Position numbers and translations under genes: made by a program. The notes under the pieces are model-generated. The model saw only the letters and a list, made by a program, of their open reading frames with translations, searched no databases and was not told the origin of the DNA. A stretch of 64,000 nucleotides of DNA from Escherichia phage EJP2. The stretch lies in sequence record OQ411014.1; one strand, given 5' to 3'. Shown in pieces: positions 25,887-28,105 of the stretch. Every line of letters starts with the position of its first letter. Position 1 is the first letter of the stretch.

Positions 25887-26363
25887 ATGTTCGAATTTGA
25901 AGAAGAGATTTATTTTGATCCTTCTGAAGATGGCTATACACACCTAAATGCGTATAGTAAAGGACGTACACGTTTGGGGAGGATGCTATCTAATTTTGCA
26001 TACTCCCCATTTGTGTTTGAGCCGTATGGTCACTTCAAATCGATGGAAGGATTCTGGTACTGGTACTGTACTGGTCAGAAGCATGATATTCTAAGAACCC
26101 TAAGTGGGGCGAAGGCCAAAGCTGAAGGCCAGAAGTTTCCTAGAGTGATTACATCAATGTCCGATGAAGATATCAGTACTATTCAAGATGCTATGGTAGC
26201 GAAGATAGTACAGAATAGTGAAATCAAAGATGCGTTGATGAAGTGTAATCTTGAGATAGTTCATTACTATGTATATGCAGGTAGGGTTGTACGATTAGAC
26301 CAGAAAGATGATTGGTTCGCAGAAACGCTGAACATGATTCGTGATGCATTACAGGGTAAATGA
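25887..26363 (+). CDS. possible NADAR (YbiA-like) domain protein
   Basis: LSNFAYSPF...EGFWYWY and C-terminal M..A...Q...IKDAL...L pattern resemble E. coli YbiA; assignment tentative. Confidence 0.4.
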   Translation: MFEFEEEIYFDPSEDGYTHLNAYSKGRTRLGRMLSNFAYSPFVFEPYGHFKSMEGFWYWYCTGQKHDILRTLSGAKAKAEGQKFPRVITSMSDEDISTIQDAMVAKIVQNSEIKDALMKCNLEIVHYYVYAGRVVRLDQKDDWFAETLNMIRDALQGK

Positions 26364-26389
26364 GATGAAATGAAAAATTGTGATATAAT
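26355..26389 (+). promoter_or_regulatory. extended -10 promoter (TGTGATATAAT at 26379-26389)
   Basis: exact recurring 11-mer; would drive transcription into the non-coding island. Confidence 0.55.
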
Positions 26390-26394
26390 CCTAA

Positions 26395-26900
26395 TACAAT
26401 ACCAGTCCTTCGGGCGATACGTTCCCAGATTCGAAAAGTAGATGATGGATGAGCATGATGGTACATGCGAGTGCAGAGATACCCGTACGCGGCGTTTACG
26501 GCACGTTAAAGGAGCTTTTAGGCAGATAGGCTCCCTAGATAGGTAAACTGAAGGTCAACTTCACCATAATGCTAAGGGAGGCTCATATGAGCCACATGTA
26601 CGTTTGATCGAATAGACTGTACATGAAGTGGGCTAAGACCCCGACCGTTGCACATGACTGTGATAGAGAGAAACAGAGCAACCCGCTTTCGTTTCCTGAC
26701 CATTTTAGTACGGGTAAGTTGTATCTAAAATTCAGGAAAATTCACAATTCGATAATTCCGATGCTACCAGCGTCAGATTTAACATCCCCCCGTGGGGGAT
26801 GAAAATACCTCATCAAACCTCGTCAGGATATAAAGTACTAAAAGTGAATTGAGTTACGATAGTAACGAAAATTCTTTGACAATCGTAAGATTGGCGAATC
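26395..26900 (+). ncRNA. candidate structured non-coding RNA (class unassigned)
   Basis: about 500 nt with no ORF of 60 codons or more, visibly more GC-rich than flanks, promoter directly upstream, several hairpins (GCTCATATGAGC about 26580; CATCCCCC/GGGGGATG 26783-26801). Confidence 0.35.
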
Positions 26901-26930
26901 AGAACCTTTACAACAATACAGGAATGAAGT

Positions 26931-27167
26931 ATGATAACAGCAATATGTGAAATGGCTGACCAAGCCAGTGGTATAAAAGATGTTAGATTGATAGAAAACA
27001 CATTACAAGCTATGCAAGATTATGAAGACTATTGTGATGATCAGATCATGTGTGGTTTGGGTTTTTGTGTATATTTCTTTGATACCGAGAAAGATATGAA
27101 AGGCTGGTCAGAAGATGATGTATATGAGTTTATGCGTATTAACGCTCACTTGGAGATTGAAGTATGA
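26931..27167 (+). CDS. hypothetical protein
   Basis: 78-aa ORF with GGAATGAAG RBS region. Confidence 0.5.
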   Translation: MITAICEMADQASGIKDVRLIENTLQAMQDYEDYCDDQIMCGLGFCVYFFDTEKDMKGWSEDDVYEFMRINAHLEIEV

Positions 27168-28105
27168 CTGAACTAAACAGAGCTAAAGGAAGTCTAATTG
27201 GATTAGCAGTAGGTGATGCAGTTGGAACGACTTTAGAGTTCAAAGTACGTGATGTCAAAAACATCACCGATATGGTAGGTGGTGGTCCGTTTAACCTCGA
27301 CGTAGGCCAGTGGACTGATGACACTAGTATGGCTCTTTGTTTGGGTTATGCACTTTTGCAAAATCATAATGTCAATGATATTGTTGATAGTATCAAGTGG
27401 TCACAAGTACAATTAGACAACTATGTAAAATGGTACATGAACGGTTACTGTAGTTCTAATGGATATTGCTTCGATATCGGAAGTACTACTCAAAGTGCAT
27501 TGCGTGCTTATATGAAAGATGGTGTCATTCGTAACAACGATCATTTCTTGGATTCAGGTAATGGTAGTCTTATGCGTCTTGCTCCAATTGCATTGTACTA
27601 TAACGCAAAGAATGTAGAAGAGTTCACAACTCTAGTGTATGCTGCTGACCTAAGTAGTACTACTACACATGCCAGTACTTTATGCCGTGAATCTTGTGTT
27701 GCATTTTCAGTACTACTCAATCGTGCTATCAATGGTATCGACGATAAGACTAAACTACTTGACTTCCCACCATCACTATGGAACGGTTTGGTGTCAGAGA
27801 AGTTAGTACTGGATGTGTTGAACGGTTCGTATAAGAATAAGACTCGTGAACAAATTAGTTCAAGTGGGTATGTTATTGATAGCCTAGAAGCCGCTCTATG
27901 GGCCTTCTGGAACACCGATAACTTCCGTGACGCTATCCTATTGGCTGCTAACTTAGGCAACGATGCAGACACTGTAGCGGCGATTACAGGGCAGATTGCA
28001 GGTGCTTTCTATGGTCTTGATGGTATCCCTGATGAATGGGTACAGAAGATTACAGCCACAGATGAAATCCAACAACTAGCTGAGGCTTTGTATAATGCAA
28101 ATTGA
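27164..28105 (+). CDS. ADP-ribosylglycohydrolase (ARH/DraG family)
   Basis: N-terminal GSLIGLAVGDAVG and C-terminal GNDADTVAAITGQIAGAFYG, the two hallmark motifs of this family. Confidence 0.85.
   Translation: MTELNRAKGSLIGLAVGDAVGTTLEFKVRDVKNITDMVGGGPFNLDVGQWTDDTSMALCLGYALLQNHNVNDIVDSIKWSQVQLDNYVKWYMNGYCSSNGYCFDIGSTTQSALRAYMKDGVIRNNDHFLDSGNGSLMRLAPIALYYNAKNVEEFTTLVYAADLSSTTTHASTLCRESCVAFSVLLNRAINGIDDKTKLLDFPPSLWNGLVSEKLVLDVLNGSYKNKTREQISSSGYVIDSLEAALWAFWNTDNFRDAILLAANLGNDADTVAAITGQIAGAFYGLDGIPDEWVQKITATDEIQQLAEALYNAN

Follow-up and report, generated by a model that had tools for sequence, protein, structure and literature searches.

Escherichia phage EJP2, a jumbo myovirus with a genome of 349,185 bp (PMC10213699), encodes two putative erasers of ADP-ribosylation within the 64,000-nucleotide stretch of sequence record OQ411014.1 that we analyzed (hereafter, the window): a NADAR-superfamily protein of 158 amino acids (aa) and, after a gap of ~800 bp, a 313-aa ADP-ribosylhydrolase (ARH). 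The gap holds a structured RNA gene that, judged by its strong covariation, appears to be a pseudoknotted member of an undescribed family specific to enterobacterial jumbo phages. From sequence comparison, we conclude that the two proteins are probably separate erasers in a conserved neighborhood, encoded neither as an operon-like pair nor as a co-evolving module. A first-pass annotation of the window had proposed an ADP-ribose-processing pair that could act as an anti-defense module; the observation of an ARH and a NADAR-like protein is confirmed, and its interpretation is partly supported.

The NADAR assignment, tentative in the first-pass annotation, is upheld at the level of fold and profile, and leads to a characterized phage protein, T4 gp30.3. 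A profile of 18 homologs has NADAR 8BAU (E = 0.006) and YbiA 2B3W (E = 0.034) as its two best matches in the PDB, and a profile of this protein family matches a gp30.3 profile with 97.9% probability (E 4.5e-13, 136 columns). The key residues of the EJP2 protein are L34-S-N-F37, E54, K65, K78 and H126-Y-Y, and the alignment with T4 gp30.3 pairs LSNF with LSNF, E54 with E36, K65 with K43 and H126 with H123. E54, which also aligns with the Glu of 8BAU, is the catalytic Glu that follows an S-x-E motif (compare E43 in P. nicotianae, E88 in E. coli C7 and E36 in T4). Both E54 and H126 are invariant across 33 sequences, and H123 is invariant in the gp30.3 family. The identity of this last-strand residue separates NADAR types: His is the phage signature, Glu is typical of YbiA-type proteins and Asp is typical of DarT1-linked NADARs (PMC11125620, PMC11543638). 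A NADAR fold and homology to gp30.3 are thus very likely. T4 gp30.3 is the anti-DarT factor NADAR (AdfN), which is necessary and sufficient for T-even resistance to DarTG1 and takes ADP-ribose off DNA guanine in an E36-dependent manner; all phage NADARs tested (T4, Bas32 and Bas60) strip ADP-ribose from DNA guanine and counter DarTG1 (PMC11825919).

The EJP2 protein resembles AdfN in being a stand-alone phage protein of ~150 aa with the NADAR fold, the LSNF motif, the catalytic Glu and a last-β-strand His in place of the Glu or Asp of cellular NADARs. It differs from AdfN in a four-residue insertion (W-Y-W-Y) after the catalytic Glu, beyond which K65 aligns with K43. In characterized NADARs, the Lys at this position (P. 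nicotianae K50, E. coli C7 K95, T4 K43) binds phosphate and comes seven residues behind the Glu, and the E. coli C7 protein cannot function without it (PMC11125620, PMC11543638); it is nearly invariant in the gp30.3 family, whereas the same column holds K, Q, V, E, R or A across the family of the EJP2 protein. Against cellular NADARs (YbiA 2B3W, P. nicotianae 8BAU and the DarT1-associated NADAR/DarG1 8BAT), identity is only 14–18%, and the EJP2 protein lacks both an N-terminal extension and a linked DarT toxin. Membership in the curated Pfam NADAR or gp30.3 families was rejected, as all scores are sub-threshold, including those of a Pel53 homolog annotated as 'DUF1768': the EJP2 protein scores 18.5 bits against PF08010 (Phage_30_3; gathering threshold 36) and 13.1 bits against PF08719 (NADAR; gathering threshold 35.1), with sub-threshold PF08719 matches in seven of the 18 family members, whereas T4 gp30.3 itself reaches 237.5 bits against PF08010. 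Plain sequence searches were thus marginal, and the assignment required fold and profile–profile comparison. By profile comparison, these proteins appear to be a sister subfamily of gp30.3/AdfN, outside the curated PF08010 family. The sister subfamily is much the larger: the matches of an exhaustive profile search, clustered at 50%, comprise 2,048 representatives, of which 525 lie below 1e-30, and homologs occur in 573 isolated phage genomes, among them Ackermannviridae, several jumbo groups and Vibrio and Ralstonia phages. Its longer members are often fused to Macro, YpsA-like SLOG or DUF4326 domains. A Macro–SLOG–NADAR architecture has been described for viral NAD+/ADP-ribose systems (PMC9503650), and the Macro and SLOG fusions therefore tie this NADAR-like domain independently to ADP-ribose chemistry.

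The 313-aa product is almost certainly a member of the ARH family, as the first-pass annotation had stated from two sequence motifs, which are present at residues 13–21 and 265–284. It matches Pfam PF03747 (ADP_ribosyl_GH) end to end (profile positions 1–287 of 287; 223.5 bits, cutoff 26.2) and phrog_6572 (E 1e-78). The residues that form the binuclear metal site and the catalytic acidic residues are intact (E25, T51-D52-D53-T54 and D267-x-D269-T270) and identical to those of Tri1, its top PDB match (6DRE/6DRH, E 3e-78). Tri1 is a type VI secretion system (T6SS) immunity protein of Serratia proteamaculans that takes ADP-ribose off arginine (PMC8120803). The phage protein shares ~50% identity over 290 columns with it, spanning the whole DraG-type catalytic domain, from which we infer that it probably hydrolyzes Arg-N-ADP-ribose; neither gene lies beside a nitrogenase-type target. 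The alignment begins at phage residue 3 and covers Tri1 residues 68–358; the ~67-residue N-terminal extension with which Tri1 blocks the active site of Tre1 is therefore missing from the phage ARH, which consists of the catalytic part only. In contrast to Tri1, with its bifunctional immunity, it has neither this transferase-plugging extension nor an adjacent cognate toxin gene, and its gene resides in a lytic jumbo phage. Bacterial proteins make up most of this very large family (at least 7,995 matches below 1e-30). Matches of at least 67% identity come mostly from short metagenome contigs; a few are long or named, and these have the size of a jumbo phage or a phage annotation. ARH domains are known in phages, where they are rare (~5% of jumbo phages) and lack direct biochemistry (PMC9503650).

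We slightly favor an anti-defense reading, in which the NADAR protein erases guanine-linked and the ARH arginine-linked ADP-ribose, both marks being written by non-phage enzymes. The substrates, the host origin of the marks and any cooperation between the enzymes are conjectured by analogy to AdfN and Tri1 and from the lack of a local ADP-ribosyltransferase (ART): no ART family appears among the Pfam matches listed for the 112 open reading frames (ORFs) of the window, in agreement with the first-pass annotation. The fusion of relatives to Macro, YpsA-like SLOG and DUF4326 domains and the recurrence of the NADAR–RNA–ARH order in several jumbo-phage genera add support. The 158-aa protein would be a NADAR-fold N-glycosidase, most likely cleaving ADP-ribose from guanine in phage DNA and/or RNA and possibly also acting on other exocyclic-amine-linked bases. 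Such an activity would neutralize DarT1-type toxins of DarTG1-like defense, as AdfN does. The 313-aa protein would be a di-metal DraG/Tri1-type hydrolase, most likely removing mono-ADP-ribose from protein arginine. Lacking the toxin-binding extension of Tri1, it would act purely catalytically, whatever arginine-specific transferase wrote the mark; candidate writers are a host defense system or toxin, a T6SS effector or the Alt/Mod-type enzyme of a rival phage. Relative to the first-pass annotation, the anti-defense idea becomes concrete for the NADAR gene through AdfN, an experimentally shown anti-DarTG1 factor (PMC11825919), and loses ground as a two-gene module.

Several points weigh against this reading. 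Both activities are predicted from sequence and fold comparison. The NADAR-like protein reaches the curated threshold of neither Pfam family, and the phosphate-binding Lys column varies in its family, so activity or substrate may differ. In CBB, GAP32 and Yen9-03, the ARH gene is absent from the locus and the NADAR-like gene and the RNA are kept; the ARH is dispensable in these phages. The literature searched contains no characterization of a phage ARH, including in papers later than PMC9503650, and no arginine-ADP-ribosylating anti-phage system. Finally, the ART search reaches 64 of 349 kb, the remaining ~285 kb lying outside the window.

A less probable alternative is that the adjacency is mere conserved synteny and that the NADAR-like protein is catalytically altered or is an N-glycosidase of other substrates, similar to YbiA, which is known to act on riboflavin intermediates in damage control (PMC9503650). 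The order of NADAR-like gene, optional ~480–590-aa ORF, RNA, optional small ORF and ARH gene recurs across several jumbo-phage genera (EJP2, the Munch/7t3 and Hallingskeid groups, Eneladusvirus BF and several metagenomic jumbo contigs). Since the genomes of these phages are largely collinear, a common gene order says little about coupling. Identities to EJP2 are discordant (Hallingskeid, 72% for NADAR and 54% for ARH; 7t3, 57% and 71%), and the two genes therefore have separate histories. The ARH has been lost in some genera, none was found within 6 kb of the most distant NADAR-like homolog examined, and the two genes of EJP2 are separated by an independent RNA gene that is driven from its own promoter. 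These observations weaken the pair proposed by the first-pass annotation and, together with the variable Lys column, speak for synteny alone; the invariant catalytic Glu and phage-type His, the strong AdfN homology and the Macro and SLOG fusions, which point to ADP-ribose chemistry, speak against a YbiA-like or altered activity. Neither enzyme nor any neighbor matches a PADLOC defense model. In BF, CBB, Yen9-03 and GAP32, an ORF of 482–594 aa without a recognizable domain is inserted between the NADAR-like gene and the RNA (L010:435-2219, L008:477-2201, L009:403-2187 and L011:790-2238). We considered this ORF as an ART in BF, CBB and GAP32 and rejected it, as it has no Pfam or PADLOC match.

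It is unlikely that the enzymes instead process low-molecular-weight ADP-ribose derivatives (immune signals such as cyclic ADP-ribose isomers, ADP-ribose-1''-phosphate from RNA repair or O-acetyl-ADP-ribose), quenching host NAD+-derived signaling or cleaning up by-products. Iyer et al. 2022 argued that the majority of NADAR, Macro and SLOG domains in phages have such a role (PMC9503650), the fusions in this family involve domains linked to soluble ADP-ribose ligands, and the window holds many genes for tRNAs and translation (six tRNAs, PTH2 and IF3). Yet every phage NADAR tested acts on DNA guanine and counters DarTG1 (PMC11825919), ARH ('ARG') domains are said to prefer macromolecular adducts (PMC9503650) and the nearest solved ARH relative works on protein arginine (PMC8120803). 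Still less probable is a DraT/DraG-style cycle in which one or both enzymes limit the ADP-ribosylation performed by the phage itself, through Alt/Mod-like ARTs that are encoded beyond the window or packaged in the virion: T4-like phages do express NADAR genes early, along with ARTs (PMC9503650), T4 alt lies ~3 kb from gene 30.3 and the visible stretch is less than a fifth of the genome, but no ART was detected among the window ORFs and the demonstrated role of AdfN in T4 is against a host toxin, not Alt/Mod (PMC11825919).

The best-conserved DNA of the region is non-coding and lies between the two enzyme genes. RNAalifold applied to 19 distinct copies yields 54 base pairs, with 97.9% of cells paired. 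Thirty-two of these pairs have changed on both sides and still pair, a level of covariation reached by none of 500 column shuffles; when the registers are slid by one to three columns, only 3–9 such pairs and 34–43% pairing remain. The invariant G-U pairs, the promoter and the terminator fix the strand as plus. The RNA is about 380 nt long in EJP2 and 430–500 nt in relatives, and consists of long invariant blocks and variable hairpins. One hairpin loop (UCGAAU) pairs with a distant AUUCGA segment, and paralogs covary at these positions (UUGUAU/AUACAA and UCAUAU/AUAUGA); because the stem of this hairpin covaries as well, the loop and the distant segment form a pseudoknot. The covariance model R1, which represents the 3' domain, gives 196.8 bits at 26590-26777 and at most 10.9 bits elsewhere, indicating a single copy in the window. 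The predicted promoter is the best promoter-like site of the region (10 of 12 matches, with TG), and its −10 element is kept in all orthologs. It fits the TGAAACG plus TATA class of phage-specific promoters of CBB and GAP32 (PMC5259590). A Rho-independent terminator ends the RNA in every relative examined except one paralog (L056). In EJP2, this terminator is precisely deleted (window 26777-26801; columns 528–560 of alignment A4).

Outside EJP2, the RNA was detected only in ~350-kb jumbo phages and in contigs of viral or metagenomic origin, many of which are about as long, with two to three diverged copies per genome in BF-like and PBECO4-like phages. Of 185,579 species genomes of bacteria and archaea, none contains the 30-nt core pattern exactly, and 29 of the 47 matches in a 16-mer scan of IMG/VR were discarded as probable chance, lacking similarity beyond the 16-mer. 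Several GenBank records annotate the region as small hypothetical proteins; elsewhere it is left blank, and no description of this RNA was found in the literature searched. In size, multi-helix pseudoknotted architecture and long invariant single-stranded blocks, it is similar to GOLLD, ROOL, OLE, raiA and RNase P, and its family shares with large non-coding RNAs a phage-borne, multi-copy distribution. Unlike these RNAs, it has no Rfam 15 family match and no adjacent tRNA genes. Rfam matches at gathering score in the window are tRNAs only, and searches of the gap and four orthologous loci against Rfam 15 at E ≤ 10 with relaxed filters gave chance matches only. RNase P was rejected on the lack of a match in these five loci and on covarying helices unlike P2/P4; a likeness by eye of some blocks to the conserved regions of M1 RNA was not borne out. 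Neither ARAGORN nor Rfam supports a tmRNA, a group I or II intron or a known large RNA; in addition, the RNA has its own promoter and terminator and is flanked by different genes. A cis-acting leader of the ARH gene was rejected as well, since no common gene lies downstream of the copies and most copies end in a terminator. A link to tRNA clusters fails as no tRNAs were found near paralogs. The RNA-seq-validated long non-coding RNAs of PA5oct (L076:14152-14602 and L077:517-1135), similar in size, score at most 9.6 bits with the covariance model, which is noise, and are not homologs of this family.

The same conserved 3' tail follows every RNA copy, paralogs included, and is placed after the terminator position. 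It comprises a CCCC..GGGG hairpin, followed by GATGAAAAT..CCTCAACAAA(T/C)CTCGTCAG and a TTGACA block; in EJP2, these elements are CATCCCCCC-GTG-GGGGATG (26783-26801), ...CCTCATCAAACCTCGTCAG... and a TTGACA-containing block at ~26876-26881 (alignments A3 and rna_all). The tail repeats the GATG...CGTCAG motif that closes the main helix of the RNA. A coding role was rejected, as the alignment shows no reading frame kept between phages. Further downstream is a 78-aa ORF, acidic and Cys-containing, that has no match in Pfam, PHROG or PADLOC. Because its stop codon and the start codon of the ARH gene share an ATGA, translation of the two is probably coupled. In L033, CBB and GAP32, a homolog of this ORF (degenerate in GAP32) follows the RNA, even in the absence of ARH. 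We found no terminator-like site between 25887 and 28105, which includes the interval from the RNA promoter to the ARH gene; in EJP2, transcripts started at this promoter may therefore extend through the 78-aa ORF into ARH. It is very doubtful that NADAR, RNA and ARH work together as one unit, with the RNA as a player in the conflict over ADP-ribosylation. In such a unit, the RNA could be a decoy or sponge for nucleic-acid ARTs, a scaffold or guide for the hydrolases or a sensor that controls read-through into ARH.

The window has ~37% GC, and its large ORFs all lie on the plus strand. The closest genomes in the phage collection are those of the ~350-kb enterobacterial jumbo phages Hallingskeid, Munch/7t3, fENko-Kae01, BF, CBB, GAP32 and PBECO4; the genome papers of EJP2 and CBB mention neither ADP-ribose enzymes nor a non-coding RNA at this locus (PMC10213699, PMC5259590). 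Six tRNA genes (Thr-TGT, Ser-TGA, Arg-TCT, Ser-ACT, Ser-GCT and Met-CAT) lie within 32682-44769, of which Ser-ACT has an unusual anticodon and the lowest Rfam score (47.9 bits). Together with Pfam matches to IF3 and the peptidyl-tRNA hydrolase PTH2 among ORFs in the first 37 kb, they form a translation-support set. ORFs in the same 37 kb, located before 22700, also match TelA-like, DHFR, RNase H, topoisomerase II (GyrA/GyrB-like) and several SF1 helicase families, and a C-5 cytosine DNA methylase (PF00145, E 2e-38) is encoded on the plus strand at 36761-37615; these matches mark the region as an early/middle part of the genome that serves replication and nucleotide metabolism. Features of the locus are listed below.

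Features of the NADAR–RNA–ARH locus of EJP2 (window positions unless a locus is named)
Feature	Position	Strand	Detail
NADAR-superfamily protein EJP02_341	25887..26363	+	158 aa, stand-alone, gp30.3/AdfN-like type
RNA family, whole region	26366-26905	+	orthologs L001:3916-4530, L002:4477-5074, L007:2416-3037, L008:2202-2939, L009:2188-2952, L010:2220-2958, L011:2239-3147, L012:2155-2889
RNA-gene promoter (predicted)	26366..26389	+	-35-like TGAAATG (26366-26372), extended -10 TGATATAAT (26381-26389)
Structured non-coding RNA	26396..26777	+	about 380 nt in EJP2
RNA main-helix closing	26448-51 / 26771-74		GATG / CGTC
RNA helix	26471-74 / 26501-04		GTGC / GCAC
RNA helix	26511-15 / 26530-34		GGAGC / GCTCC
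RNA local stem	26595-601 / 26619-25		CATGTAC / GTACATG
RNA pseudoknot	26608-13 / 26747-52		TCGAAT / ATTCGA
RNA invariant core	26642-26691		CGACCGTTGC...GATAGAGAGAAACAGAGCAACCCGCTTTCG
RNA helix	26659-63 / 26742-46		TGTGA / TCACA
Conserved non-coding 3' tail	26783..26905	+	
Small acidic ORF	26931..27167	+	78 aa; from ORF list
ADP-ribosylhydrolase (DraG/ARH family)	27164..28105	+	313 aa, Tri1-like catalytic domain only

Both enzymes are of known kinds, and current understanding is not overturned. Immunity by ADP-ribosylation of DNA (DarTG), mRNA (CmdTAC) and proteins is a fast-moving field in which the phage erasers tested come from one lineage only (AdfN and two other NADARs). The EJP2 protein belongs to what is probably a very large phage sister subfamily, invisible to curated Pfam models; the change at its Lys position could point to another substrate. 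With an ARH so close to an immunity enzyme specific for arginine, EJP2 would give the first indication that phages, too, must erase arginine marks on proteins. The most unexpected item, which goes beyond the claims of the first-pass annotation, is the unannotated family of large RNA genes in the gap; independent of any link to the enzymes, it may represent a new class of large structured phage RNA.

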